A DNA stretch of 63,950 nucleotides, counting the filler, from Dirinaria sp. TL-2023a (Eukaryota): the NCBI GenBank assembly GCA_051941275.1. It is 4 parts of 4 records of this genome, joined end to end, with 100 filler letters (N's around TTAATTAATTAA, not from the genome) between each part and the next. Parts side by side here need not be neighbours in the genome. Positions count along the whole stretch, not along the records: positions 48,907 to 63,950 come from JAVEBF010000564.1; 3 more parts are not named here. The stretch is one strand, 5' to 3'. The position numbers and the translations under genes were made by a program. Below the pieces are notes generated by a model, which was not told the DNA's origin, did no database searches, and worked only from the letters and a program-made list of their open reading frames with translations. Below are positions 7,525 to 62,093 of this stretch, one piece after another (position 1 is the first letter of the stretch; each line of letters opens with the position of its first letter).

Positions 7525-7556
<32 letters not shown>
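7525..7556. repeat. poly(T) tract
   Basis: 32 consecutive T; a similar run lies at 10449-10478. Confidence 0.95.
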
Positions 7557-10446: not shown

Positions 10447-10482
<36 letters not shown>

Positions 10483-16221: not shown

Positions 16222-16321
16222 NNNNNNNNNNNNNNNNNNNNNNNNNNNNNNNNNNNNNNNNNNNNTTAATTAATTAANNNNNNNNNNNNNNNNNNNNNNN
16301 NNNNNNNNNNNNNNNNNNNNN
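16222..16321. other. Artificial contig spacer (N + TTAATTAATTAA + N)
   Basis: 100-nt block containing a six-frame stop linker. Confidence 0.98.
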
Positions 16322-18736: not shown

Positions 18737-21700
18737 TGGTGTCACGGTATTGTGAGGTGACTATGAGTAGTTGAGGTTTCGAGAAGAAGCAGGAGAACTG
18801 CCACTCTATATAGTCCCCCATAGCGTAGCAATTGCAGAGAAGCTGGGGTAGCAGAGCCTCTAAGATTGACTGATACGAACCAAAGGGACTGAGACGAAGG
18901 ATCAGCATTGTGTGAATTGCTAGATTCAGCTTAGCGACCCGAACGCCCACCCAACTGTACCCATAAGAGTAGACAAGCGAGGCGCGGCAAAAACTTTCTT
19001 CAATTGCAAAATCCTCGTAGGATTTTCCACTTTTGCAAGTCGAAATTTACATTTGCGACGATGACAGCGACCGCTCGGCAGGTCTAGTGATTTACTTACT
19101 TGGACTGTGCTCCTGATAAGGCATGCTCGATACTATGCGTCCAAAACCGAAAGCCTCAATCAATGTGACGTTATTGGTACACTGAGATCGAAATTCTTGT
19201 CGCACTTTGACTGAGAATTGCAAAAATGAAAATTGCATCAGATTTCTGCAAATGACAGTACTTGCCTGACAACACAAGGCAACATGCAGCAATATGCAAC
19301 AAATGCAAGCGCCAGCGTGGTTGCAGAAGCAGCTAAACCAAACCAGGTAATAATGACAAGTGGAGCCACTTTGCGGCACGAGATGGACATCAACAAGCCT
19401 TGACTGACATCTAAGGTAATTCGCATCTAACTTATGTACGAAGCGTAAGTACATGAATAATCCTTGTCCCAACACCCTGGAATGTGCGTCCCACCACGGG
19501 CCACAAACCAATGAGTTGAAATGATTCCTCCATCAGTGGGCGGTTTGACACCCACACCATCGGAATTCAGGGATTCACCATTCGTCCCACGATGAAAACG
19601 GCAGAGTACGATTTGTTTCTACAGATGGATCTTCGACCTCACCTCGGAACTCTTCAGGTTGTCAGGGCCAGTGTTGTCAGAGTACTTCTACACCACCAGC
19701 CTCTTCGATCCCGCCAATGAGCTTGACTTGATTCGAACGCTGTGTCCCGGATTATATCACTATGCTGATCTTTTCAAAGCACTGAAATTGCGTCCTTGAT
19801 CTATCCCACGTAAGTAGGCGCTCTCTCCTCAACAACATCTGTTTCGGGCAGCAAATTGTAATGAGCGAAGTGATGATACGGTCGTGGCTCGCTGAGTCTA
19901 TGCCTAATCCGCACTAGCTTTTTGGAATTGCACTAAGATAAGACACCTTAGATACTCTGGTCTCGCCGTATAAGACCAGGTCGTCTGCAGATACGATAGG
20001 CAGGTATCCTAGACGGACTAGCTTATGCAGCTTCAACATAGGTAGATGTAGTCTTGATGGCCTAGGTGGGTCGTGCAGCGTCAACTGATGCGCCGCATGA
20101 AACTATCATGCTCTGGCATTTCCAAGACCCTGATGCTGTGTCCTTTGCCTATTCTATGTTCCCAAATCTCCTCTCCTTAATGATATCTCGAAAATTGACC
20201 CTACTTCAGACGTCAATTCTTAACGAAGTAACTCATAACTACCATCCAGGCTTGATCGCCCCCATAATGCAAGCAGGAGTTCCGAGCCCAGCGATGTCTC
20301 CGCACACGAAGCTGCTTGTCAATCACATCAGCGCTGACCAATGATGAATCTTCCCTGGGTACGGTGCCATGGAATATCTTACCTGACTAACTTCTCTCTT
20401 TAACTTCACATGGCTGAGAAGAAATCAAACGTCATCGTTGGAAGTACGAATCTCATGAGTTCAATATACGACGGGCCCGAGACCCGCGATAGCCTTAGCG
20501 GACCCCACATCTTACGATTTATTGTAGCAGAGGACATTCTGCCAATTTGAGTGGACGGCGAACCGCTGATATGGTGTACAATGATTTTTCAATGGTACAT
20601 TGAGTTGCTCATGACAGACCTACTAAGCACACCTTTACCTTTGAGCTTTTACTTCGAGATATGGTACTCGTCGCCGCAATTTTGCCTGAGCTTGTTTCTC
20701 TCGCCGCCCTCCGTCGGCGTTGTCAGTTCATGAATCATAGCTATAGCTGTAGCTGCCGGCTGTCAATCATCGGATCATGCTTCATTGGAAATACGAAGCG
20801 CTCCGACGAGAGCCCCCTTATCTTTCTTTTGCGCTTCCAAAAAAGAAAAGAATCTTCTGGTTGATAATATATGTCATTCCTCTAACACCGCAGAATACAT
20901 ATGTGAGGATTATTGCCGGGTGAGACATAGATTACGCCTAGTTGAACAGATTCAAATAAGGCTGGTCGTGGGGCGACAGTAGTGGGATCCCAAAAGAAAA
21001 AAAAAAAAAAAAAGAAAACGGACGGAATATGTATACAGCAGTGTGGTGAAGCAAATCTCAGCCTTCTTTCGATTGTATCATACAGAGAACCCGACGAAAT
21101 GTCCAAGCCCAAAAAAAATCATATTCTTTTTTGGCGACATACAAGCTAATCCTCGAACACGTACCTCGACGTAGATATCAATACGTCTATTTCATGCACC
21201 TTTCTTCACTTACTGCTGTGTTCCAGAATTACGAGAATACTATGATGCTCATTATTTCCATCGTTTCAAAGAAAAACCCGATTCGAGAAACATCCTGTTC
21301 ATCATTGATGCAGGAATCACAACAGACACCCATACGCAAAACAAACATCTGTTAACGCGCAAACGATCATTTCATTAGATACCCACTCTCTTATCCTCGT
21401 CTCCCAATACCTCAGAATGAGGATATTCACAAAAAACATGTTTTTTTATAAAACCATTTAATGATTTGACATCGGCGCTTGCATGGTGAATCGATCCATC
21501 GTCATTTCGTGAAACCGTGTTTGTACTTGAAACTGAGGTATGACGGTGTCGGAGGTACTAATCCATGTAGGTAAAAAAGATATTGTGGGGAGTGGGGCAC
21601 TGTGCGGGGCTCCCCTTTTTTTGCCCTTCTGGTTGTGGTTTTTCAGAAGTGGGAAGCCTCATCGCGGACTTTTTTAGACTGGGGTTTGGGCTCTTTGGGA

Positions 21701-22019: not shown

Positions 22020-22600
22020 CTAGTGATAGACCGATGCCGGGTATCCGACCAGACGGGCATTGTTAACCGGCAAGAACTTCGACTCCTTGCAGAATTCATG
22101 AGCTGATTTCGAGAGCTCCTCACCCTCCGAGAATGCAAACTCCTGCTTCAGCAGCAGATCGTAATCGGCTTTGCGATACTCGGGCGCGATGTTGTAGATC
22201 TGGGCCAAGTATTTTTTCTGTTGCGGGGATGTAGTCAGTCAAAAGGAAAATACTGATACGTTTGTAGAGAATCATGAAATGAGAGCGTACCTGAATAATG
22301 GGATAATTGGCCTTGGCCACATTCTTTTGACCGTGTTCTGATGCAAGTTCGCTCTCGCCTTGTCGCTCATGACCCGCTTGTACAACTCCGTGGCTTGAGC
22401 ATACTCACTCTTCTGGGCTTCGTGCATGTAGTGGCTCTTCCGAGACACCACGTTCTCAGCGACAGAGTAAGAGACCTCCGTAGGATCCAGAAGGGACGCG
22501 ACCTTGAAAGAGTTCAGGACATAATGTTTGTTACCGGCGTGGTTGGCGCCGACACGCATCGGCTCTGATGGAATAATTGCGGGCCATGAAAGGGTGCTTG
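22020..22600 (-). pseudogene. 5'-truncated catalase pseudogene (C-terminal region only)
   Basis: HPFMARNYS / PMRVGANH..YVLNSF..SRKSHYMHEAQKSEYAQATELYKRVM..RANLHQNT / NYPIIQ / KYLAQIYNIAPEY resembles the C-terminal part of fungal small-subunit catalases. It has frameshifts, a retained intron (~22220-22290, GTACGC..ACTGAC..CAG), and no heme-binding N-terminal part upstream. Confidence 0.75.
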
Positions 22601-23000
22601 CTCGACATCACGATGAAATTTCTTCGAGAACTTTTTCAAGACAAGATTGCTTGATTCATGCATAAAAAAGTGGCGCCGAGGCTAAACATGCTCTGAACGT
22701 TAATCTTTCATAAAATCTCTTCCCCTTTCTCTATAGCTTCCCCTAGCTGTCGTTTGGAATAAATCAGGTCTTCACGCGAGGTGATAATGGCTTGAGGCTG
22801 CGTCATCTGCTTCTGATCATGGGTAGCTAGGGAGATGGAAATGGGCTGTTAGATTCTAGTTAGTTTTTCATTAAATTACTTCTGTGCCTAAGCATAAAGT
22901 ATATACTTAATTTATGCGCCTACAATATCATGGCTGCCCTCAGCTGTATAGAATTGGATGGCTGCGAGCGGAGGTCGGGGAATTCGCGTCCACCAACTAC

Positions 23001-23480
23001 CCTCGATACTGTTAGCGTGATCCTGGTTGAAAAGATGGGACACTCTACAATAGGTACCTTACTTTACACGCCCAGACTGCCAGGCTTCGCTTGAAGAAAG
23101 CTAGGGTTACGTGTGAGCTAAGCCATTTCCGCGTTTCACTTTGGTCTTCGTTGGGTTGTAAACCTTTCTCGGGTAGGATTCAGGCCTGAAAACACAGTCC
23201 TGGATACTGTTAGCGCGGTCCGAGTTGAAAAGATGGGACACACCACCTACTCCAGCGCACCCCGTAGTCGCTCTGCTCCTATTCTACCTTACCTACCTTA
23301 CAGGCCTAGACTGTCAAGCCTCGCTCGAAGGAATCTAGGGTTGAATTTGCGGGTGAGCTAATCCATTTCCGGGTTTCACTTTGGTCTTCGTTGGATTGTA
23401 AACCTTTGTTGGGTAGGATTTGGACCTGAAAGCACAGTCCCGATGCTGTTAGCGTGGCTGGGGTTGAAAGATTGGAAGGG
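23001..23480. repeat. Tandem array A of a ~125-nt conserved-core repeat (one partial plus two full units; periods 198 and 239 bp)
   Basis: Cores start GAGCTAA at 23115 and 23355; CTGTTAGCG occurs at 23009, 23207 and 23446. Homologous to array B at 57068-57942. Confidence 0.9.
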
Positions 23481-24562
23481 GACGCCACCGCACGTATCTG
23501 AGCCAATGATGTGTATTGTATTGGCTTAAGTTGCTCATGCCGCATCGATAACATCATTTCATGGTTATGCCTTGATCATGCTTTCTACCCAGGTTCAGTC
23601 TTGAGATCTTTGCAGCAATCTCCGCCGGTCCTTCGATTGCGCTCATAGAGAGAGATACGACTCGGACCCGGGTTGTTACTTGAAGCTCTAATAGTCGTCG
23701 CTGTAGTTTGCAGTGGGTGCTCAAAATTGTTAACGCCTAAAATTGCCATTGTATTTCTTCAAGAATACGAATGTGCTTGCTGATAACGGGTAAGAGGTAA
23801 GTTGAAAGTAAGGGAGCAGAGACGCGGATGTGAGCTTGGAGTGCGAGTCAAAAAATGTTATTTGATCGTTCCCATTGAGCTCTTGAATCACTGCAATATC
23901 CTCAAGTATCTCAGATTTGCCAATGTCCCGAGACTCCTACTTCTCTCCCTGCTTCCAGCATGCTAAATTCTTCATCTACCGCTTTGGCCCACGAGCTAAT
24001 CCAGGTTCAGAATCTCATCGCCATTCGAAGCGCACACGGTCTAAAATCACGACTGCAATAAGGTCCTATGTTTTACTAAGCTCTGACATCGGCATACCAG
24101 TTAGCACTGATCCTGTCCTTGCAATAATTAGTTTTCCGGGCCGCCCAAGGATAAGGCTGAGAGATATTCAAATCTGACCGCCTGCACATGGCTATCTCAA
24201 TTTGGACCAGAATGAAGATGAGCTGATTGCGCCAGGTTTTGAACATCTTCTTTCAACTTTGTTCGATGAATGCAAATGATTTTGGCTGAATGGGTTTGCA
24301 GAACCCTCCCGATTCTAGAAAGTACTGCCTGAACAATACACGGAGGCTTCTTGACAGATGCCTTGTCAATAATGATGCAATGGAAGCTTTGGAACTTGAC
24401 TACGGTTTCAATTCCATGTCCGGTATTTGAGTCCTAGGGTCCAAACTTAAGTACAGTGGGTCACACCTTCAATAACTCACCAAGCAGCGAGATAGAGACC
24501 TTTCCGAGAATGTGGGAAGCCCTTTGAAGCTGTGCGTAACAACATCAGCATCCAGACCGTGC

Positions 24563-25765
24563 TCAATCCTCCTCCTCGTCCTCCGAGTCCTCCGAGTCTG
24601 TACCGAACTCCTTTAATATTCTTCTCGCAATCTCGTCGCTTTCCTTATCGCCCAGCTTCAATGTTGTGTCATCATCGTGGATCGCCTCTCCTTCCTTGAT
24701 CATTCTCTGCGTTACCTCACCGACATCTCCAGCCTGACGCGCCAAAGCAAGCAGCACAGACTTGCGAAAATATGGCCCCATTGTCGCAAATGGCTTCTCG
24801 TTAGAGAGTCTGAGGGAATATTCTGCAGACCCTTGAGACTTGTAATGGTTAATGCGGAGTAGTGTTACCACGAAATGATAGTAAAGAAACCGAGCAGCAG
24901 GACGTTCCTCATTCTTCCAGACCAACACTCGTCCTTGGTAGTCTCTGAGCTGTTCGCGTGCATTTCCGACTTGGTTTTTGAGTGCGTCATCATTGGTGAT
25001 TTGGACCTTCCATCGTTTGATTGGCCGTTCTGTCAGGTCCACTGGTAGAAGCACAAAGTGTCCCAGTTCAAACTGCCTCTCCAGTTTTGATTCCATCAAC
25101 AAGCAGTTGTCAGCGGTGTTAAGTCTCAAACCCGCTCCGGGGCCGCAGATATACTCTACAAGCTCTGATCCTAGTGCAAATGGCACTATTTGCCCTGCAG
25201 TAACATTTTCTTTATCATGGTAAGCGTGGGAAATAGCACACCATTGGCAGAGTTTCTTTGACTTATCCTGATCTGTGCCATAGCGAGCGATAGCCTCACC
25301 CTTCATCTGTGTCTGAATCTTGCTTCGCTTGCTATATTGTGTCTGGTCTTTGTACAACTTCAGCAGCGCTGCAGTGAATGCCCCTTCTGTGTCCGAGCCT
25401 AGGGCAGGGAGTTCATTTGCTGCTTCTTCCAGCATTCGATGCTTCTTTCTCTCCTGCCATATCTCTGCTCCCAAGGAGATAAGACGAATATTGGCATCGC
25501 GGTGGGCCTTTCGATGGTCTTCCTCCGTCATCAGTCGTTGTTCGTACTCACATCGGAAGCCTTCCTTTTGATGGCGCTGCGCCTCTGCTTCGTTCTCTAG
25601 CTGCTCTATCATTACCATCTGGTGTTCAATGGGAAGTTTTTCCATCGCGATGTTCAATATATTCCTGTTCAAACGCTCTCGAGTCACCTTAATCTGAAAC
25701 TCTTTCTCATTCCACTGATCAAGAGAAGAATTACGAAGTGGAATAAAGGGATAGCTCGTCGCCAT
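24563..25765 (-). CDS. Fungal HNH-endonuclease-domain protein with N-terminal coiled coil (possibly catalytically altered)
   Basis: Intronless 400-aa ORF. WCAIS...VTAGQIVPF...NTADNCLLMESKLERQFELGHFVLLP fits the HNH_2-type pattern C..S...AAHIVP...N.LL.....FD; RPAARFLYYHF lies downstream. Confidence 0.8.
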   Translation of the reverse strand: MATSYPFIPLRNSSLDQWNEKEFQIKVTRERLNRNILNIAMEKLPIEHQMVMIEQLENEAEAQRHQKEGFRCEYEQRLMTEEDHRKAHRDANIRLISLGAEIWQERKKHRMLEEAANELPALGSDTEGAFTAALLKLYKDQTQYSKRSKIQTQMKGEAIARYGTDQDKSKKLCQWCAISHAYHDKENVTAGQIVPFALGSELVEYICGPGAGLRLNTADNCLLMESKLERQFELGHFVLLPVDLTERPIKRWKVQITNDDALKNQVGNAREQLRDYQGRVLVWKNEERPAARFLYYHFVVTLLRINHYKSQGSAEYSLRLSNEKPFATMGPYFRKSVLLALARQAGDVGEVTQRMIKEGEAIHDDDTTLKLGDKESDEIARRILKEFGTDSEDSEDEEED

Positions 25766-28700
25766 TAGTTGTGAAGATCCTTAAGAAATGGGAGAAGTAG
25801 TGAACCCGATACTGAGAGAGATAAAGGGAGCGTATAAAGTAAGTTGGAATGTTAGCTTTGATGAGGATGGAGTTGAGCCAGAATATATACTTATATTCAT
25901 TAAACTTTAATGAGAGGCTCAGAGTAAGTGGTTTAAATATATCATAATATCCGAGTGGCAGTGTGTACCTGGAGGTATGAGTCAGATGGTGGTGGCAATT
26001 TCCGTCAACCACATGTTGATGGTCATTGTTGGGAAATGAGTGTGGTATGCCTAAATTGCCGTTGGGTAGGCATTGCCCCAGCATATATTTATTCCAATAA
26101 TGCAATGAACTAAGCCCAATTAGGCATAGACTCCGCAAACTCCAATCCTACCTCTACAAAGGATCTCTCACAGTCAATCAATGCAGTGCCTACACCTTCC
26201 CATTGAATAACGACGAGGAAATAGGGGGGTGCGCGGTATTGGAAAAGCCTCGTGGCTCAGAGAACGAAGAAGAACCCTTATAGTCAGATCTACTACTCGT
26301 GAAACCGTCACGGCGTTCCCATCGATCTAGCAAAGATGATGTTCTTCACAAGATATCGTCGTCTTTCAAGAAAGAGGAAACGTCTATCATGCACATTGCG
26401 AGCCTGAATTCTTCAGCCGTGTTGAAAAACATTCCCGACCCTTTCTTGCTTTATGCATTTTCCAGACAACTTCAGGTGACGGGCGCACGATCGCCACTGA
26501 GCTATTTATGCGCGAGTCCATTTCCGTCCGGTGCGTGATATAGAGGTTTGTGGAAACAAAAATGATTCATAAAACAATTATTCGTCCCAGAACATCAAGC
26601 AGGAAAGTATGGGATTGGGAGAAGGATGATCTTATATAAGCGTACGAAAGCTGTATATTGTAAGAAGGAAGTGGATCGAGGAGCGGGATTCATGTCCCAG
26701 ACTTCTGGCCTGTTCAGTGTCTATTAGGATATGGAGTCATCTATCGGATAGAAGAGTTCGAAGCTATGAATGCTCTTGGCTTGGAGTTGGAGTTATCGGT
26801 GGTATGGCATTTCTCTCTATGTCTAGCCAAGGCGATCATCCTATCCTCCCCTATGCAGGAGAAACTCAAGAATGGAAAGCTTCACCAATGCCACTCTGTT
26901 TTGAGAATTTATACTTCAGGTTATTAGCAATGCTTCATTAAGCGTTGTGGGATCTGATCGATTTTGTCACATTGCGGAGTATTGAAAGAATCTTTGTCCT
27001 CAAACTCGCACTTGTTATTCTCCAATCCCCTTGACTGAGCTCAAAATCACCCTAATATTTTTTGTCAAAGATTTGAAACAAATATGCATCTTTCCTTTTT
27101 CGATTTTGTCCTTATTCTCATTCAATAGATAGTCGTTTGTCTATTTCAAATTTCAACAGAGGATAATTGCCTTCTGATCTCCACTGGCTATTCCCATTAT
27201 CGAATTTACATAGCTCTGTTTTAGGTCGATACAATACATATCCAGAAGCAGTTGTAAAAGCACAAGGTATGCTGATTGATGAAGTAGACTGTTCCATGAT
27301 TGACTATCAGAGGAGAGAATTACAGGTGTTTCTTAACAATCAAGCATGATTCAAACGACTTGAAAGAATAAATGCTCTTCAAGCACACAAACCACCGAGC
27401 CAAGGAAGTTATTTGAATAAAAAAGTATCTTGCCAGTTCATTGTGTGATAATAGGTCAACAGACTAGCACAAAAAAGAACTTTGTTGAGTGTAAGTATGT
27501 ACGTACCCATCTGTGCAGATGTGCCCTCCAGTTCTGATTATTTGGCACTGCACAGTTAGCGCCGAGAACTCAACTACTTCAAAAACAAATCAGGGTCTAA
27601 AGATGCAAGTGGATATATATATCTTCCTCTCCAAATGATCAACATCGAGCACTCAACTGCAAACCTGTGATCAGAGAAAACATCTGCGAGAATATTTCTT
27701 GCTGGCTCATTTCCTGAGAGCCAACCTTCACACAAAGGCCAAATACCAGTGCCCGGGTGTTATCAGAACCAAAGAGCAGCTGTCTTCTTCGCTGGGCTGA
27801 TCAACGCCGAGAAGTCAGAGCCGAGAACCTAGCAAGGACCTGGTATTCACCTTTCTATGTCCTTTCTGCTTCTTGCAAGATTAGCCTTTCACACCCCTTT
27901 CTCATACCCAACAATCACTTCTATCTTGCAACCCGGAATCGCCAAAGTGGCACAGCGGCCTTTGATCAAACTAGGGTCGCCTGGCCTTTTTTCTTGTCTG
28001 CTTCTGCTCTTTGCTCTGGAAGTACGACTCGGTGGTCTCCACATCTCTGTGCTAGGACTAAAAATGGTACTAGGCTCAGTAGCGGATCCACATGGTGCCA
28101 AGTGGCTATCGTCTGGGGTATTGCAACTGATAGCAAAGCAGGTAAGACCATATATCGTCCTTGAGAATTCGAGGCTCACAGATAGCTTGACGCTGGTCAG
28201 AACCAACTTCGTGCTGCTAAACACGACTTCTTACCAAAAATCAGCAGTTCAAGTCCAGACGCTAATGGCTGATATAGATTTACGATTCCTGAGAGTCACA
28301 AGACTTCTGGACCTTCTCCATCGTATCACGAAACTTCTACAGTGCTTCCACCTCCTCAGCATAAGTCGTGGGACAAACGCAGAAAGTGCAGTGGCGAAGC
28401 GGGTTGAGCGTCTAGGAAAGGCGCTCGAGATGTCGTATTCCTTACCCGTATATGATTCCAACTGCGGACTACAAAGAAGTCGAGAGCTTGGGAGGGAGCG
28501 ACTGAAGAGAAAATAATCATGGAAACATATTCTCACCTGGCTGCTAGGAGTTTATTCAAAACAACGCTATTCTGATATAACGAGGATTTACTGAAGCGAA
28601 GCATATCACTCATCCGTGCAGAAGGACAATCGTCTGCCTATACAGCATAAGAACTTTTGGGGATCTCAGGGACGAAGGGTCCTCTTTCACAGAATACCAC

Positions 28701-32519: not shown

Positions 32520-32619
32520 NNNNNNNNNNNNNNNNNNNNNNNNNNNNNNNNNNNNNNNNNNNNTTAATTAATTAANNNNNNNNNNNNNNNNNNNNNNNNN
32601 NNNNNNNNNNNNNNNNNNN
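32520..32619. other. Artificial contig spacer
   Basis: N + TTAATTAATTAA + N, 100 nt. Confidence 0.98.
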
Positions 32620-48806: not shown

Positions 48807-48906
48807 NNNNNNNNNNNNNNNNNNNNNNNNNNNNNNNNNNNNNNNNNNNNTTAATTAATTAANNNNNNNNNNNNNNNNNNNNNNNNNNNNNNNNNNNNNN
48901 NNNNNN
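48807..48906. other. Artificial contig spacer
   Basis: N + TTAATTAATTAA + N, 100 nt. Confidence 0.98.
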
Positions 48907-50603: not shown

Positions 50604-53334
50604 AGCTCCAGAAAAGACCGATGCTCACGTCGTACAAAGAATATCAGCCCGTGGCAAGCGATTCGTTCGGAGCCAGACAAAGGGGCTGCCGGCGGACTGT
50701 GTGCTCCACACCAGATGACTGAACGGCATCTTAAGCTCCTCATTGGAGCAGAGCCGCATTTTCCAGATCCTGAACGTTGTCGACGATGAGGGGTTGTAGT
50801 TCCACGGCTTGTTGGACGAGTGGGAGTGCAGCCGACGAAGACAACAGTGGCCAACCAGCTGTGCAGATGGACGAAGGTTCGCGCTGTGGCGTGGGAATCC
50901 GTATACGGGCAGCGGTCCTAATGCACTTGGAGGTCAGCTGGTCGCATTAAGACCCTATAGATAAGACTGCCATGCACACCGTCGCTATGGGATCTTGCTG
51001 ATTGGATCTTTCAGTCGTCCTTCGCCGTCCTGCAGCATGGACATCCCAGTCGACTGGACCTCTACGTTGCAATTGCTGACCCCACTCAATAGTGCTAAGT
51101 TAGTCTAGCAAACGGTTGGTGCTTAGTACACGGGACTGTGTATGGCCGATCTTCCCACGTTCTAAGCCTAGTAGGTCGCAGCTGTCCGCCGGATGGGGTA
51201 TAGATGTGAGCGTGCAGTGATGCTATGGAGCGTGGCATTGCCGCCGTAAGAGGGTTGAAGCTTTTCGAAAAGAAGAGCAGTGAATGAGACGATATGACCA
51301 AAGTTGTAAGTTGACATAGGTAGGCCAAGGACCTCGGTGCGGCAGCAACGTAAGTAGGGACACGGTGTGTTGTAAAGGCAGTAAAAGTAGTACCCTTTGA
51401 CCGCAGCCCTTGGTCGACATCTTCAACTAATTGAGGCAAAGTCTTTGTAACGCTGTCTGGCTCGGCTGAAGCACTTATAGTATTCAGTCAACCAAAATGG
51501 CCACTGTTATTATCGAGTTTTAGGAAGAGGGGACGCTCCATTAAGTATCCATTCCTGCATTACACATTCGTATCAATGGGCCCCAAAGATCTCGTAGATA
51601 TGCTGGGCTGTTTGCCTAGAGTTGCCTAATTTGCAGAGCCTCCTGTAAGCCAAAGCAAACGAGGTTAATGAACCCTTTGTTCTTGCTCGAAGTACAGGAC
51701 TAGATACGGCACCACCGCAGCAGGGCGTCCAACCCAAATGGATAACTGCATCATGACTGGTCCGGACCTATGAACACCGAGTATGATAGGTCAGACCTCG
51801 TCATACATGCAGCTATGAGCAGTCCCGTGCGGTCATCGCTCCTCAACTGCGAAATTTGCGAACCGAGCACCTCTTCTATCTCGCATATTGCCTCAATTGC
51901 TGCTTGCAACCCGCCTATCATTGTGCCAGCATGGCTTCTTGAGTCTCGTGATTCATGAGCGCACCGGATCATTAGACGAGATGCTGCCATGTTACATGGT
52001 CGGGGAGCGGATACCACGTTGAGTCTCCTGATACGCCCGTCATGCGTGAAGGATTTCATTCTTAACGTACTTGCAGGAGCCGATTCGCTGTTCTGTAACC
52101 GAAGCAACCATCCCACAAGACCTTCTCCAAAACAAGCTGTTGGATTCGGACAGTTAGTAAAGCCTCTTCAGAAGTGCGTCGGATATCTATGGGCTCGGTT
52201 GAAGACCCTCCAATGAACGGAGCATCTATTGAGAGATTCAGATATCATTCCAGGCCAATGCGTGTCCAACTTGTGCCGCTGGCAGAAACCTTGATCCCAG
52301 AGTGGTTTGGTTACAAGCTACATCTATGTAAGCTCTGCGGAATCAGAGCCACGAGACGTAAAGCTATCGGACAACTGAGATCGAGGGGAATTTAGCACTA
52401 CTTGAGCTCGAAAATGTAGGGGCTTCTTGCGGCCTAAGGGTTGAAAAATCAATTTGGTTCGAAGGCCAAGACCAAACCTCGCCGCATTCTTATACACGAA
52501 TGGTCTATGAGCATGCCCGGGTGATACAAGGAAGATTGATAGGAAACGCAAGTTACAGGTAGTCCCCACGCGGCTAAGGTCCCAACATTGACTGTGCCAG
52601 AGTGAGTATATTGAGAGCTAGCATCACCAGCGAAGTCTCTTTGCAGCTTATTCTTCGCTCCTTCGTTGGCTCGAGAACTTCCGAGGATGGCATAGCGTTG
52701 CATTGAAGCCAGAATCTCGGTTTCGACTGCTAGGCATTAATTGCTACCAATCAGGACACCGGACGAATGTCTTTGCTAGTCTATCGATCGCTCTGAAATC
52801 GATAGCGTCAGAGGGAGAATGTCCAGCGCAGCGCTCAGTCCCAAGCTTTAGACCAGTGATCTAGCCTAGCTGACCTGTGGGAGTCAGTGGAGGTTCGGAT
52901 TGAAGGGATGCTGTCGTCGAGTTTGGCTTCGACTAAGGCCCGTGAGGCGCAGCCCACGCGGATCAATGCACGCAACAGCCGCCAAGCAATCGTACAGATC
53001 CTACGGCCTGAAGCTGATGATTGGTGAAGGGCAAAAAGAAGGTGTTGGCTATTATACAGAAGCGTAGACCGAGTAAAGAAATAGGAATGAACGGGCTGTG
53101 CCTTTCTTTCCCTGGTATCTTCCATGAGAGATAGGGGTGTATTTTTGCGCTAGTGGCAATAAATTACGGAAACATTCAGTATTGAATGAACTACAAGGTA
53201 AAGTAAGATCTTATGTTAGGATGATTTTTTCCCACGCTAGAGACGCGTACTTCACTAAGGTATTACATCTATGATGATTGCGTCCTGATAAATAGTACTT
53301 CCAAGTACATTATCCGTGATACCGTTGTGAAACA

Positions 53335-54642
53335 ATGGCTACATCGTACCAAAAGCCGGTGCATTCCATCGTCCTAGATGCAGGACCGATTTTGAAAAAC
53401 GATCCGCCAATATCTACCCTCCTAGCGAAGTCGGAGCAGCTGTTTTCAATTCCGTCAGTAGTGTCTGAAATAAGGGATCTCAATGCTCGCTCGCGGATTG
53501 AGACAACTTTGATCCCTTTTCTTACCATCAGAGACCCCAGCATAAACAGCATCAAATTAGTCACAGAGTTCGCTCGGAAGACTGGTGACTTAGCTGTTCT
53601 CAGCAACACAGATGTAGCAGTTTTAGCTTTGGCATACGAACTCGAATGTGACAGGAATGGCGGAGACTGGAGGCTTAGAAGATCGCCTGGACAGCAGGGC
53701 ATTAATGGTCCGGTACCGCAGAAAATCGAGTCTCAGGTTACCAAGGAGTCCACGGAGGGCAAACAGTTGACATTAGCCGAACATACCCAGCAAGAGCCCG
53801 ACTGCCACAATGACGTAGCATTTGTAGGAAACAGCATTGATGACTCGATATCACGTGACCTACAGAAGTGCAAGATTGCGGAAGAGGGATCCTCTACTGC
53901 AGTACAAACCACCATTATATACAAGGTTCACCAAGAGTCAAATGACGAGTCTACGATAACTACCGGGCAAAGTGTAGAACATACCTCGGAAACAGACAAT
54001 TCGGACTCGGACGGTTGGATCACCCCTTCCAACCTAAAAAAACACCAGTCGAGAGATACAAATGGCAAGTCACTAGCACTGTCAGAGAATAAGATTTTGC
54101 AAGTTGCTACAATAACATCCGATTTTGCCATGCAAAATGTACTCCTTCAAATGGGCCTCAACCTGCTATCAACGTCCATACAGCAGGTCCGCCACATCAA
54201 AACGTACATCTTGCGATGCCATGCTTGCTTTCAAAAGACGAAGGACATGAGTAAGCAGTTCTGCCCTCGCTGTGGTAAACCGACCTTGACCCGAGTGTCC
54301 TGTTCCACAAATTCAAAGGGCGAATTCCAGATGCATTTGAAGAAAAACATGCAATGGAGCCACAGGGGTGATCGCTACAGCATACCCAAGCCAGTATCAG
54401 GCACAGCTAGTGGTAAAGTAGGCAAGGGTAAGAAAGGAGGCAAAGGTGGATGGGGTCAAGAGCTAATCCTTGCCGAAGACCAGAAGGAGTATGTGCGTGC
54501 AATACAAGAAGAGGGCCGGAGCAAGGAAAAGAACTTGATGGACGAAGACTATCTGCCCAGCATCCTGACCGGAGAGCGCTCAAGAGCAGGCGGCCGGCCA
54601 AAAGTCGGTGCTGGCCGAAATGTAAATTCCAAGAAGCGATAG
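53335..54642 (+). CDS. NOB1: 20S pre-rRNA D-site endonuclease Nob1 (PIN domain plus Zn ribbon)
   Basis: IVLDAGP, ARKTGDLAVLSNTDVAVLALAYELE, GWITPSN, TSDFAMQNVLLQMGL, LRCHACF..FCPRCG. Intronless. Confidence 0.97.
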   Translation: MATSYQKPVHSIVLDAGPILKNDPPISTLLAKSEQLFSIPSVVSEIRDLNARSRIETTLIPFLTIRDPSINSIKLVTEFARKTGDLAVLSNTDVAVLALAYELECDRNGGDWRLRRSPGQQGINGPVPQKIESQVTKESTEGKQLTLAEHTQQEPDCHNDVAFVGNSIDDSISRDLQKCKIAEEGSSTAVQTTIIYKVHQESNDESTITTGQSVEHTSETDNSDSDGWITPSNLKKHQSRDTNGKSLALSENKILQVATITSDFAMQNVLLQMGLNLLSTSIQQVRHIKTYILRCHACFQKTKDMSKQFCPRCGKPTLTRVSCSTNSKGEFQMHLKKNMQWSHRGDRYSIPKPVSGTASGKVGKGKKGGKGGWGQELILAEDQKEYVRAIQEEGRSKEKNLMDEDYLPSILTGERSRAGGRPKVGAGRNVNSKKR

Positions 54643-56265: not shown

Positions 56266-58520
56266 CTAACTGATAAATTTACGGAGATTTAAAATAGTTG
56301 GACGACGCGCTATATGCAAAATCCTAGCTGACTGAGCTTCACTTCCAGTGTATAATTCTCTTCGCATCCGGCGGCGGCTTGCAAATGACGAATCATCATG
56401 GGCTCTAATGCAGTATCTCAAGTCGCTTGTGGGGTCAGACTTCATCTGGCTGATGTCGTTTTTCAATCAATTGAATCGGTTCCATTGTATGTAATATCTC
56501 AGTCGTCCGAACGAAGCTCTTTTATAGCTTCCAAGTAGTGGAGTGTGCTCCCGGGCCACAATGTGGGCATTTTACCGTGACTAGAGTTATTCTTGAAAAT
56601 TGATCGGCAGGCTTCTGACCAGACTGTCTTAGGCATATAGCTGCGAACATGCTGTGTGAAATCTTCGACGGCAGCAGTCTTCGGGCAGAAAGAGTGTGTG
56701 TTCTCAGTCTGATAACGGTCGGTAAGCAGGAGGAAATAGTCAGCTTGAGCTTCTAGGGTGGTACAACGCCGCCCATTAATGTGATCTCGTTTCCCTTGGA
56801 ATCTGATGTTTATCAATTGCGATGATTGTAGGGCCATTGCTGACTGTGGAGTTGAGCCCCCAAGAACGTTAGCATTCGGGAACCCAGGTATGCCCATACC
56901 AAGGTATGATCTGGGCTGTCCTGCCCATGCGTGCTGTAAATTTACTTCGTTCGAGCGAATTAACCGGGAATCGAGGTATGAAGGATCTCTCATAGCCGGT
57001 GGCACAAATTATCGCATCGAAAAAGTGCTCTGTGTCATCTTCGGACCTGCGTCCACGTTTTGTGAAAGGGGAAACACAGGGCAGAGCTAACCGCTTTCGA
57101 GCTTCACAAGGTGTTCTGTCGGGTTGTAAACGTCCTTCGGGTAGTTTTTCGAAGTACAACCGTAGTCCTAGTGCTGCTAGCGTCGGTTAAAGTCATAGAG
57201 ATGGGAGGGTACCTTACATATACTTTGCCTGTGATGATTTTCGCGAGAAAAGAAGAGACAAATGAACTAACCGCTTTCAGGCTTCACAGAGTGTTCTGTC
57301 GAATTGTAATCTTCCTTCGAGTAGATTTTCGAGGTAAAGGCCTAGTCCTAGTGCTGCTAGCGCCTGTTAAAGTCATAAAGATGGAGGGTAAGATAAGGTA
57401 GCTCACAAATACGTGGCTCCCTTACCGAGAGAAAACAGGAACGAGCTAACCACTCTCGAGCTTCACAGAGTATTATGTCGGGTTGTAAACGTCCTCTGGG
57501 TAGTTTTTCGAGGGAAAAACCTAGTCCTAGTGCCATTAGCGCTGATTAAATTCATGAAAGTGGGAGGGTAACCTCAGGAGATCAGAAAAGAGAGAAATGA
57601 GCTAACCGCTTCCGAGCTTCACAGAGTATTTTGTCGGGTTGTAAACATGTCTCAGGTAGGTTTTCGAGGGCAAAACGTAGTCCTAGTGCTGTTAGCGCCT
57701 GTTGGAGTCATAATGAGGGATGGTAAAGTAAGGGAGCTTACCTTTCAGATAGGTGGCTCTCTTATCAAGAGAAAGGGGGAAGTAAGCTAACCGCTTCCGA
57801 GCTTCACAAGGTGTTCTGTCGGATTGTAAACGTCCTTCGGGTAGTTTTCCGAGGTGAAAATGCAGTCACAATGCTGTTAGCGCCTTTTAAAGTCATGAAA
57901 ATGGGAGGGTACCTTACCTTACATGCAGTGATGTCCAGATAGAACGCGTAACATCTTCATGAGCGATCTGGACATTGTCTTCAGCCAAGCTCTATCAGAG
58001 AAGGTAAGTGCTAACACTAGCCCTACGAGGTTGGTGCTGGACTACACATGTAGATATCCTGTGTCAGGTGTCACTCTTAGACAGCCTACCCCAGTAGTCC
58101 GAATAAACTGCTCCCCTAAAGGAACCCCAGGCAATTTTTTCTTCATATCGTCTGTCAATTCCATCTTGACTTGTTGCTGTAGTATCGAGTCCCGGAGATA
58201 TACGTCTAAGCCCAGACATACTAAATAGCTATTAAAGAATGCTTCCTTCATTCGAAGCTTCGTGAGCGTCCTCGAATTCTTAGAGTATTTCGCAATCTCT
58301 TTTTAGTGTAAAAAGACTGATCTCCACCAACGGACGGTAGAAGCCACATTGATGATCGGATGAAAATGGTTAAACTTTCAGCGAAAGACTGAATCTGAGA
58401 CAGAATATGGACAGTTGAAGACCTGTATCGGCTATAAGAAGGGGCCATTGAAAGACTTCGCCTGCAAGGAGTCATACCCGTTCCCAATCAGCTACAATTA
58501 CAGATTCACGGTCTTAGAGG
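56266..58520 (-). pseudogene. Flavin-binding (Baeyer-Villiger/FMO-type) monooxygenase pseudogene interrupted by repeat array B
   Basis: Collinear BVMO motifs: LIGNG/SS..IL..IQ..FIRS..W, GVGCLRVTP..GYL, SLAEDNVQIAHEDVTR [insert] FTKRG..DAIICATGY..FIPRFP, W..QPRSYLG..PGFPN, CRS.FKN...LWPGSTLHYLEAI and YNGNRF. Several frameshifts and stops; the N-terminal part is missing. Confidence 0.85.
57068..57942. mobile_element. ~875-bp insertion consisting of tandem array B (5 units of the ~125-nt core; periods 180, 179, 156, 185 bp)
   Basis: Cores start at 57084, 57264, 57443, 57599 and 57784. Removing the block restores monooxygenase codons ...GTT ACG CGT TTC ACA... (VTRFT) on the minus strand. Homologous to array A. 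Confidence 0.8.
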
Positions 58521-60708
58521 CCAGAACCGGAGAGCCACGGACTGTCAAAGTGAATTTCGAAATAATCTCTGAAGTCTTTAGGCTAAGCATAAGGCTGAAA
58601 CATCGGCATCAATCCAAACGACGTGGATCGGGCGCTCATTATGGATTGCTTGACAATGCTCTGAATCCAAATCGACAATCTATCCACGTCTAGCTCAATA
58701 TTTGCAGGATCATAGAACACAGACAATCATAGCATCTCACATTCCAGAGACCCAAAGCGGACCCAGCGTATCGTGGCCAAAAGAGGCTTCTCGAAGTACT
58801 AGTCTGAAAGTATCAAAAGTAAAGGAAGAGAAAAGAGACAAAGAAAAAGGCCAGAAGCTAGGCAAAGGGCGCTTACCTGCAGATGTCAATCTTCACCTCA
58901 TTCTGCGTACCAGAGGATGAGTCCATGGCTGTCATGGCTGTTGGCATGTCAGAGTAGGCAGGAGCTGAGTGCTACAAACGAGGCCAGCATCCACACTACC
59001 TACCTTATATATTTTAAACTTTCTCTGGCGATGCATATATGTAATCTTACCTTACCTTTAACCTTAGATACAGTTGCCTCAAGCGCTACTCCTATTCACC
59101 CCCTTTCTTGTTTCGTCTATTTATTATACTTTCTTCTTAGAGTTAGACTTACAGAGAATAATTTCATGTTCATTCAATAATCTGCTGCTTCTGAGTGTCT
59201 CAGATGCATCAAGTTATGAATGATCATCGACCTGAGAACGATTATGACCATCGAAATTGTTACTCGAAGCAGTCTATGAGATGATTCATACGAAGAACAA
59301 CGTCATAAGTTCTGAGTCAAGACTAGTCGTTCAGGTGACTAGAAATCTAATAGATGGAATTTGCAGAGTCTAGAACAAGGTTCTGTGGACAGTAAGTTGA
59401 AGCATTTGAGTGATATAGGTCGTGATATTAGATGATCCCTCGAACTACTTTTCAGGTAATCCCATCTGTGGCATTGACCGCGTTAGTCAGGGTTTATGAC
59501 ATCGAAACCCGTATTATTTATGGCATAGAATACCAGAATAATTACTACTATAGTCCAAATCGATATTAGATCGATTATTTCGTAAATTGAAGTACTTAGG
59601 AACAGCAGATTATTTGATGATGATGAAAGGTAGTTTGGTGGACTGAGAACAGTTTTATAACCCTAACCCTAACAAGAAAGTAAGCGTCCTTGGATTGAAT
59701 GAAACGTTGCTTTCTTACCCACTAGCACTAGTAACTCCTAAGCACCTCTATGGTGGTATTTGAGCTCTGGCTTACGTAGTGTTGCGACTCAGTTCAATCA
59801 GGTCGGCGAATCCCCTTCAAATCCGGTTCCTCCGTAGTTAGGGGGTGATCAAACATCATCTTCCGCGTACCATTGCGGGGTGTGGATGCAAAACAGTATT
59901 AGCGCCGGAAATGCCACTATAAACCACATCGGCTCACTATTTACTTTATCTTTTGCTGCCTCAAGTGAGTACTCCATGATCTGCATTGCGGCATACGTAC
60001 GAATGTCACTCACGTCAATACCACAGCTTCCTTTTCTCTATGCGAGACCATTCATCGAGGGAGACGCTAAGCGACAAGTCCGATGTACATGGACACAAGG
60101 AGAATGGGGTGGTTGTCGAAACACTCATCCCTGCGCTCAGATTGTGGCCGCTTTATCCGGGGTTTTTCCACATCAGATATTCGCTCTCTCCGATATGAGC
60201 GTTGGTCTCCGGCCGCGCTAACAGAGGGTTCTATAAGTATAAGGTAGGTGGGGAGCTGAAAGCATCAAAGCCGAAAAGAGGCATCCAAGCTAAAAATCAG
60301 GCAGGTGAATGAGGGAAAGTCAAGCTGACAAGCGTCGCAGGACAACCAAGGTCATATGCAATGCTCCACTAAAACAAGGATCCCACACTGGGAGCATCAT
60401 GTTGGAGTGCATTCGTCTCTGATTGATATGTTAGGACCTGGAACCCGTTTATATTCTGTAAGGTAAGCAAAGGATTATCCGTTTATGTCCTATCAATGCA
60501 CAGCTCGACATGAATCCCTCACAACATCAACGATCTACGGTGGCTTTTGTATCGTAGATCATGTGCCTTTAGATTGTATTGCCTTTACCTTGCATTGGAT
60601 GCTGTTTCTTCGACATGGCGCGCTAATTGTTTGACAAAGCATTCTTTTACCCTTATAACGCTTTCGTTTCCCATAGCAGGGGAGGCTTATCTTCTGTCAT
60701 ATTCACGC

Positions 60709-62093
60709 ATGTATTCCTCTCTTTCTACTGCGTTAGTCTCTGCCGTGGTAATCTTTTCAGTCATCTCATCTGTCGCGGTCGGTCTCCGATTTAAAGCGCG
60801 ACTCAGTGCAGCCGTTGGAGTAGCCACCGACGACTTTGTGATACTGACCGCATTGGTATGGCACAGTCTATGCTCTTAGCCTTAGTTTTGGAGAGCTGTT
60901 GGCTGTTGTACTGACATCCAAAGAGCTGATACAGTATGCTGCCGTTGCCATCTCGATCTATGGTGCTGTAGCGGGGGGAGAAGGGGATTCAAAGCGAAAC
61001 CTTGCGGACCATCCATCCGAAGTAGTAAGGAACGCATAAGTATGGATTGAACATCCACTTGGAATCTCCCTGCTAAATGCCCATTAGCTCCTTTTCATCG
61101 AGCCTTTCTTATTTTCTATTTTCTACGACTGTTGCCTTGATTAAGTTATTGACCTTGATTTTGTATATGCGAATTTTTGTTAAGAAGAATTTCCGCTTTG
61201 CATGCTACATTATGATGGCCGTTGTTGCAGAATGTTATGTAGCCGCGATAATAGTAAGTTCGCTGCAAGCTATCTGAGCGAGCTTTGTCTAAGGTATGGG
61301 ATCCAGCCTCAAATCTTCTCGAGTAGGCCGATTTCACGAGCTTGGACCATGCCTGGCTACGGTCGTAGATTCGATTATGCCGCTTATTTACTAGCATTGG
61401 CTGCTATCAATACAGTCATGGACGTTGCCATTGTTTTTATGCCCTTATTCGTAATCAGGGCATTGCAAATGTCCCGAAGTCGCAAAGCTTCCGTGTCTGG
61501 AATCTTCTTGCTAGGTCTATTGTAAGTTTTACTAGGTAATCTCGTGCTTCGTAAAATCACTAACTTCAATGTTCATGTAGCTGCATCATTGCGTCCGCGG
61601 TCCGTCTCCATTATTGTGTAGAATTGAAGGACACGCCAACAAATACAAGTAAGCTTGCTGCGTTCTCCAAGCCAAAGAAAAGATATTTTGCGCTGATGAA
61701 GATCTAGATGTGATTACAGAAGATACGATGTGGTCTTTTATTGAGCTATCAATGTCGATCATAGCTGCTTGTCTCCTAACTCTTGCGCCTCTTTTTAGGG
61801 GTGGGCGCGATGCGTCTTCGCTGATTCGAAGCGTCAAGTCTGTGCTCTCGATTTCGTGCACTCTTTCCTTTTCCAAAAAGAGCAAAAGAGGGACTGCTAG
61901 CAACACTAATCCAGCAGGTCAGGATAATCAAGGTGCAAAGCATGCATGGCTACAAATGAGTTCAAAGCTGGGCCGTAGCGATACCATTGGCTACCAGTGT
62001 GACGTTCAGTTGGACGAAAGCCGGACTGCTGGACAGCAACTGCACGGCATAGTAGTTCAGAAGAGCCTGCAATCTGTATCCGACTCAGTTTGA
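60709..62093 (+). pseudogene. PTH11-like/rhodopsin-domain integral membrane protein gene with disabling lesions
   Basis: VAVGLRFKAR..DD..I, LIKL..L.LY.RIF, D..IV.MP..I..LQMS..RK..V..IFLLG, CIIASAVRL and WS.IE..MSIIAACL across 6 exons. In-frame TAA at 61037-61039 and a 7-bp duplication TATTTTC (61110-61123) that shifts the frame. Confidence 0.8.

Follow-up and report, generated by a model that had tools for sequence, protein, structure and literature searches.

What kind of element is repeated head to tail at two places in the genome of the fungus Dirinaria sp. TL-2023a (GenBank assembly GCA_051941275.1), and is it kept for a function? We analysed a 63,950-nt stretch of this genome, here called the window, that consists of four ~16-kb pieces joined by runs of N with a TTAATTAATTAA spacer at 16222-16321, 32520-32619 and 48807-48906. 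An earlier annotation made from the sequence alone (the original prediction) had described five units of a repeat family at one place and about 2.3 units at another, and had proposed that the family is under selection for a non-coding function. Both sets of units were found, as array A at 57080-57950 and array B at 23004-23490, on pieces 4 and 2 of the window, respectively. The repeat family is real, dispersed and non-coding. With a probability of about 0.5 we read it as a selfish or neutral satellite-like repeat, with insertion at each locus followed by local amplification and decay. None of our results demonstrates a cellular role.

Copies of the repeat were detected with several methods. 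An nhmmer search of the window with a profile of the seven full cores recovered seven full copies (E 9e-42 to 1.4e-33) and one partial copy, the truncated unit B1 at 23004-23044 (E 0.00097), and no further significant copy in the 63,950 nt. A four-block pattern with fixed spacing matched seven times in the window as compared to zero times in 100 shuffles. The units share a collinear core of ~125 nt and measure ~156-185 bp at locus A, while locus B has a period of ~240 bp. Tandem Repeats Finder called array A twice, with a period of 180 (57084-57572, 2.7 copies, 75% matches) and a period of 335 (57253-57911, 1.9 copies, 77% matches). It made no call on array B, where blastn detected a self-match between 23290-23476 and 23055-23238 (80.5% over 190 nt). 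When the window pieces were compared with each other by blastn the arrays were common to two of them and otherwise only homopolymer runs were shared. These runs of 27-32 T or A lie on pieces 1 and 2 (7525-7556, 10449-10478 and 20992-21018). As in a satellite, the unit is non-coding and arranged head to tail, and the family occurs at more than one locus with unrelated flanks.

Both arrays are embedded in decayed minus-strand genes, a context missing from the original prediction. The open reading frame (ORF) to the left of array A matched the C-terminal part of Baeyer-Villiger monooxygenases (BVMOs), including the steroid and phenylacetone monooxygenases in the PDB, and 125 fungal StcW-like proteins with identities of up to 47%. 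The host gene was mapped by tblastn with three full-length homologues and with a profile built on 50 homologues, drawn from 88 of near-full length (540-640 aa). The stretch GCRRLTPGxGYL was placed at 58098-58045 and is followed by a short intron. Profile positions 305-319, 321-335 (57988-57944) and, across the array, 333-372 (VSPFTKRGRRSEDDTEHFFDAIICATGYE, 57075-56956) directly flank the 873-bp block, and tblastn with the three homologues agreed. Given these placements, array A interrupts a coding exon without loss of host codons, a near-clean insertion of 873 bp, and both of its flanks align to profile positions 333-335. The exactly repeated AACA at the two edges of the array may represent a short target duplication; extended to 9 bp (57067-57075 compared to 57944-57952), it agreed at only 6 of 9 positions. 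The BVMO gene itself is dead. It carries in-frame TGA codons at 56501 and 56469 (-) where homologues have a conserved tryptophan and a TAA at 58580 (-) at a tyrosine position, and homologue residues ~39-194 are missing with ~130 nt in their place (58421-58554, -). The GxGxxG motif region reads DADVSA, followed by a stop.

The host of array B is a dead catalase gene with in-frame stops and large deletions. Residues 1-60 were placed at 23749-23575 and residues 144-184 at 23027-22918, followed by residues 274-321, 343-373 and 432-587. As compared to a 588-aa homologue, residues 61-143, 185-273, 322-342 and 374-431 are missing, and the remainder is collinear on one strand. Array B occupies the place of residues 61-143, which include the catalytic region, between 23575 and 23027. 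The best matches of the neighbouring catalase fragment were in the lichen-forming Heterodermia, Letharia, Lecanora and Psora (56-72% identity), and the window is read as nuclear DNA from a Lecanoromycete-like ascomycete. An in-frame TGA is present at 22710 (-), again at a conserved tryptophan of homologues. The TGA codons at conserved tryptophan sites in the BVMO and catalase genes may most simply be explained by decay of TGG to TGA in dead genes.

We considered duplicated host exons as the source of the units and rejected this origin. Among 136 six-frame fragments the catalase and BVMO profiles matched only the flanks, and when the catalase exon was locally aligned at the DNA level to five of the units, p was >= 0.84. 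Matches of units to catalase residues 157-176 by tblastn were weak (E 0.09-4) and were supported by neither the profile nor the DNA alignment.

Coding potential was assessed in the cores. The original prediction had stated that no reading frame is conserved between units. One + frame is in fact open in all seven cores, but it carries no coding signature. Variable columns were spread over codon positions 1, 2 and 3 as 20, 17 and 16 of 40, with no third-position excess, and synonymous and non-synonymous codon differences were in a ratio of 42:150. A frame open throughout the five A units came up in 7.8% of column shuffles. None of the 44 six-frame unit fragments matched Pfam at E up to 0.1. From these counts the units are judged to be non-coding, with a + frame that has no codon-position signature.

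The + frame was nevertheless useful as a search profile, and against 1.84 billion representative proteins it retrieved one true relative, P0194 (144 aa, E = 3.7e-15), which is encoded on a 12-kb ENA contig. P0194 aligned to all five A units at 49-57% identity as well as to part of the linker, and is closer to A than B is to A. The family is therefore present at three or more loci, the third known at the protein level. The predicted two places hold as two separate loci in the window, joined by one relative in a public assembly. A second match (E 1.2e-4, six stretches), to the predicted protein P0195 (ENA, 289 aa), was taken as spurious. P0195 is internally repetitive, with two short peptides, FQYPLSGRVWWS and FSTLCRVGFGGA, that recur in alternation; it resembles a translated DNA repeat array, has no relation to the repeat family and came to light only through a series of weak matches. 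A word-indexed protein search with the + frame alignment detected no longer protein, with none of its 2276 candidates passing at E up to 10, and an Atlas search gave no usable match. Metagenome contigs gave 0 matches to a pattern for the 3' half of the repeat. A 5'-half pattern matched metagenome contigs at five loci, none of which was confirmed by the profile (best E 0.69, off the matched site). A looser pattern gave 15 single matches in viral contigs, where the profile scored the anchored stretch only (best 10.1 bits) and found no arrays.

Divergence was then compared between cores and linkers. Across all seven units 50 of the 127 core columns are invariant, and unit identity was 76-84% within arrays and 59-68% between arrays. 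True unit pairs scored 33.5 in local DNA alignment as compared to a shuffle mean of 7.9. The blocks that the original prediction had called nearly invariant are real, but units A2, A3, A4 and B3 each break at least one of them. Linker lengths of 31-116 nt agreed with its description, but the strong linker divergence that it reported was seen only between arrays, where linkers failed to align with each other. Within an array homologous linkers were 76-81% identical (81% for those after A2 and A4, 76% for the two B linkers) as compared to 78-82% for cores, and the contrast between a conserved core and a free linker is therefore valid between arrays only. The longest identical runs between the A and B consensus sequences (11, 11, 7 and 7 nt) were not above column shuffles (p = 0.30). 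Site-rate heterogeneity is thus modest and block conservation not striking.

Repeat-induced point mutation (RIP) was rejected as the source of the divergence between units. In array A, C/T columns were followed by A in 1 of 14 cases and G/A columns were preceded by T in 5 of 23. Transitions outweighed transversion-type changes within array A (185:76) but lay outside the CpA/TpG context. The high TpA/ApT value of 1.6 is a property of the conserved blocks, and RIP-type indices were absent from the flanking pseudogenes.

Together these data suggest the following history, in which we infer insertion, then local amplification, and neutrality. Each locus would have received a copy, one unit or a short multimer, by insertion. 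At locus A this insertion would have hit a coding exon cleanly and may have duplicated 4 bp of the target, and at locus B it would have come with, or before, the loss of ~83 codons. The arrays would then have expanded in place by unequal exchange or replication slippage, and roughly neutral decay since would have brought neighbouring units to ~20% divergence. Identity is higher within arrays than between them and linkers behave like cores, which fits local amplification followed by uniform decay. The shared blocks would be mostly inherited similarity together with mild site-to-site rate variation, and the element would do nothing for the cell, its only visible effect being the interruption of two genes that are now dead.

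Several observations weigh against this history. The copy set is small, with eight units at two loci and one protein-level copy. Invariant columns were clustered beyond shuffles (p ~0.01), which leaves room for constraint on some blocks, and columns variable within A were enriched among the A/B differences (26/28 as compared to 18/55, Fisher p = 0.008). The + frame is open in every core. Splice-like motifs, described below, are among the best conserved blocks and are co-oriented with both hosts, which pure neutrality does not predict. The flanks of A and B, compared for a shared insertion site or terminal sequence, aligned no better than shuffles (p = 0.18 and 0.48), and the left and right flanks of array A did not resemble the linkers (p = 0.09-0.94). 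At the array ends we detected neither terminal repeats nor a tail, and no target duplication was clear.

Table 1. Positions of the two arrays, their units, host genes and splice-like motifs in the window.
Feature	Position	Strand	Description
Array A	57077..57949	+	873-bp block, five head-to-tail units
Core A1	57082-57218		followed by a type I linker
Core A2	57262-57397		followed by a type II (palindromic) linker
Core A3	57440-57575		followed by a short linker
Core A4	57596-57731		followed by a type II (palindromic) linker
Core A5	57782-57918		followed by a type I linker
AACA, left	57073..57076	+	left edge of array A
AACA, right	57950..57953	+	right edge of array A
Host of array A	56290..58646	-	decayed StcW-like Baeyer-Villiger (flavin) monooxygenase gene
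Array B	23004..23490	+	one truncated and two full units
Unit B1	23004-23044		truncated, model positions 90-131
Unit B2	23112-23247		
Unit B3	23353-23489		
Host of array B	22023..23749	-	decayed catalase gene
Intron-like segment, unit A5	57876..57922	-	GTAAGG at 57922 and 57917; CGCTAACAG with CTAAC starting at 57880
Equivalent donor/acceptor pair, A4	57741/57695	-	
Equivalent donor/acceptor pair, B2	23301 or 23292/23213	-	
Equivalent donor/acceptor pair, B1	23062/23015	-	

We next weigh a functional non-coding element under selection, which could serve as a protein-binding array in chromatin, replication or regulation, or as an RNA that needs no stable fold. The enrichment and clustering of variable and invariant columns given above (Fisher p = 0.008; p ~0.01) favour selection, and most blocks are kept at the protein level in P0194 (LT, LH, RVVF, LA and KME). 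The strongest A/B block, GRTTGTAAAC, which is RVVN in the + frame, however reads RAIN in P0194, linkers decay no faster than cores within arrays, and both loci are in dead genes, which would be an odd place for a selected element. The original prediction was right that the family is real and non-coding, but its case for selection is built on one comparison of A with B, in which the identical runs did not exceed shuffles and rate heterogeneity was modest. Structured RNA, which it had listed among the possible functions, found no support. Single-unit folds (n = 6) had z scores of -1.47 to +0.76. The alifold consensus of seven sequences, a sample of low power, reached -8.89 kcal/mol on the + strand (column-shuffle mean -9.28, z 0.15, structure conservation index (SCI) 0.27) and -5.56 kcal/mol on the - strand (z -0.72 as compared to column shuffles, SCI 0.24), no better than column shuffles on either strand, and at the same low power 2 of the 26 predicted pairs had a compensatory change, which we do not read as covariation. 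The Rfam 15 covariance models gave 0 matches at gathering score in the whole window, and at E up to 10 only chance-level matches to HOTAIR_2 and a plastid 3' untranslated region in array A and none in array B. No self-cleaving ribozyme family, hammerhead or other, matched either strand of either array at E up to 10. ARAGORN predicted 0 tRNA genes and no tRNA, 5S or 7SL family of Rfam matched at E up to 10. Identities as tRNA, 5S, snoRNA or ribozyme were rejected as they had no Rfam or ARAGORN support, and C/D-box and H/ACA motifs, checked by eye, were not conserved across units. A selected element is unlikely. Should more copies reveal true constraint on the blocks, the family would count as a functional element, of unknown kind.

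The splice-like motifs raise a further explanation, that the family is an intron-like mobile element whose arrays are multimerised introner-like copies, with sense copies surviving because host transcripts are partly spliced. Followed on the minus strand, the sense strand for both hosts, most units read GTAAGG...(44-95 nt)...CGCTAACAG, a combination of fungal-type donor and branch/acceptor motifs that resembles a minimal intron. GTAAGG or GTAAGC is present on the minus strand of six of the eight linkers and CGCTAACAG is intact in five of eight units. Host and motif orientation agree at both loci, array A sits in a coding exon with all host codons kept, and the truncated B1 ends ...CGCTAACAG|TATCG at the exact point of return to catalase coding sequence (SRVVGGREFPD). 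Intron proliferation in fungi is described in the available portions of PMC4457414 and PMC8469720. Against this, removal of the intron-like part, 44-95 nt of a 156-240-nt unit, does not restore the host frame, and 100-190 nt per unit would stay in the mRNA. The branch A lies just 3 nt from the AG, and the motif is degenerate in three of eight units, with CTAGC in A1 and A2 and CTAAT without CAG in A3. By chance alone two loci would agree in orientation 1 time in 2, and both hosts are dead regardless of splicing, given their in-frame stops and large deletions. We consider an intron-like origin improbable, and the more specific claim of a new array-forming, intron-like mobile element of lichen-forming fungi, with a minimal intron in each unit and retention in genes only in the sense orientation, would be doubtful. 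If true, partial splicing of every unit could turn repeats into new introns or small exons, and if the minus-strand signals are used the family would bear on the origin of new introns in fungi.

It is also doubtful that the repeat is a non-autonomous transposon of a defined class with a tandemly repeated body, such as a short interspersed nuclear element (SINE)-like retroposon, a miniature inverted-repeat transposable element (MITE) or a Helitron/Helentron-type carrier. The clean exon insertion with AACA on both sides would fit a transposon, as would the imperfect palindrome in the type II linkers (arms of ~12-14 nt, read by eye), and Helentron-type elements carry short satellite-like arrays in the oyster according to the available part of PMC7492417. 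The array ends, however, have no terminal inverted repeats and no A-rich or microsatellite tail, and no transposase, reverse-transcriptase or helicase domain was detected in 23 ORFs of >=110 aa on the two array pieces. The tRNA, 5S and 7SL results above argue against a SINE. By our own reading against the consensus, the box-B-like GGTTGTAAAC lacks the conserved C, and for a tRNA-derived SINE the A- and B-box-like words are imperfect and their order fits only weakly. Nor do the ends read TC...CTRR, the Helitron consensus.

Lastly, a relic of a repeated protein-coding exon, whose + frame (...LHKVFCRVVNVLRVVFRGKN...KMGG) stays open across all units, is very improbable: a gene caller did yield a 144-aa protein holding one unit, but the codon-position and substitution counts, Pfam, the longer-protein search and Atlas all went against coding, B2 and B3 keep in register with A only through frame changes, and the detection of P0194 by way of its open frame is a selection effect. 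In annotation, this open + frame has already led to one or more spurious protein predictions in a public set.

Other genes were also detected in the window. An intact-looking 440-aa NOB1-type gene is present at 53320-54642 (+) and matched the NOB1 PIN (E 1e-32) and zinc-ribbon (E 5e-29) domains. Just to the right of the catalase pseudogene, a 405-aa open frame with an acidic tail at 24563-25780 (-) matched only HNH_2, below threshold (E 0.006). Two adjacent frames at 61184-62090 (+) matched the fungal rhodopsin domain PF20684 (E 4e-12 and 2.5e-4) and are probably one gene split by an intron.

The original prediction did not recognise the family, and this stood, as neither Rfam nor Pfam gave a match. 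No paper was found that contains both block strings. A search for Lecanoromycetes satellite DNA or tandem repeats gave only non-fungal satellite papers among the matches listed, and the words 'tandem' and 'satellite' are absent from the published lichen Helitron study. Judged against Rfam, Pfam and the literature, the repeat family is previously undescribed. It is one more uncharacterised family among the repeats of lichen-forming fungi, which are poorly described as a whole, and provides two concrete cases of a tandem repeat lodged in coding exons of genes that have since decayed.

Retrozymes and similar tandem repeats yield unit-length circular RNAs by means of hammerhead ribozymes, and their units are 150-400 nt long and non-coding. 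The arrays described here are likewise tandem and made of non-coding units, but differ in that no self-cleaving ribozyme family was matched on either strand. The repeat fails as a member of the fungal proliferating introns, the ribozyme-bearing tandem repeats, the SINEs and the Rfam families. Fungal introner-like elements (PMC4457414) and the proliferating sister (stw)introns of Hypoxylaceae (PMC8469720) are, in the available portions of these reports, single complete introns whose removal restores the frame. The repeat resembles them in a coding position taken without codon loss and in the palindromic segment of some linkers, and its sense-strand motifs, degenerate in three of eight units, are donor-like and branch/acceptor-like. 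It differs from them as so described in that its units are tandem, the intron-like part makes up a quarter to a third of the unit and the frame is not restorable. The tandem-repeat families of Tribolium (PMC4675708) and the Helentron-carried arrays of the oyster (PMC7492417) are described, in the parts of those papers at hand, as dispersed short satellite-like arrays in gene-rich regions. Unlike these arrays as so described, the two loci here have no flanking carrier sequence in common, the host is a fungus and both arrays are located in coding exons of decayed genes. They share with the beetle and oyster arrays monomers of about nucleosome length (~156-240 bp here), few units, several possibly unlinked loci, a non-coding sequence and local amplification. 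By this comparison the short satellite-like arrays of beetle and oyster would be closest in kind to the Dirinaria repeat, with the fungal proliferating introns second.

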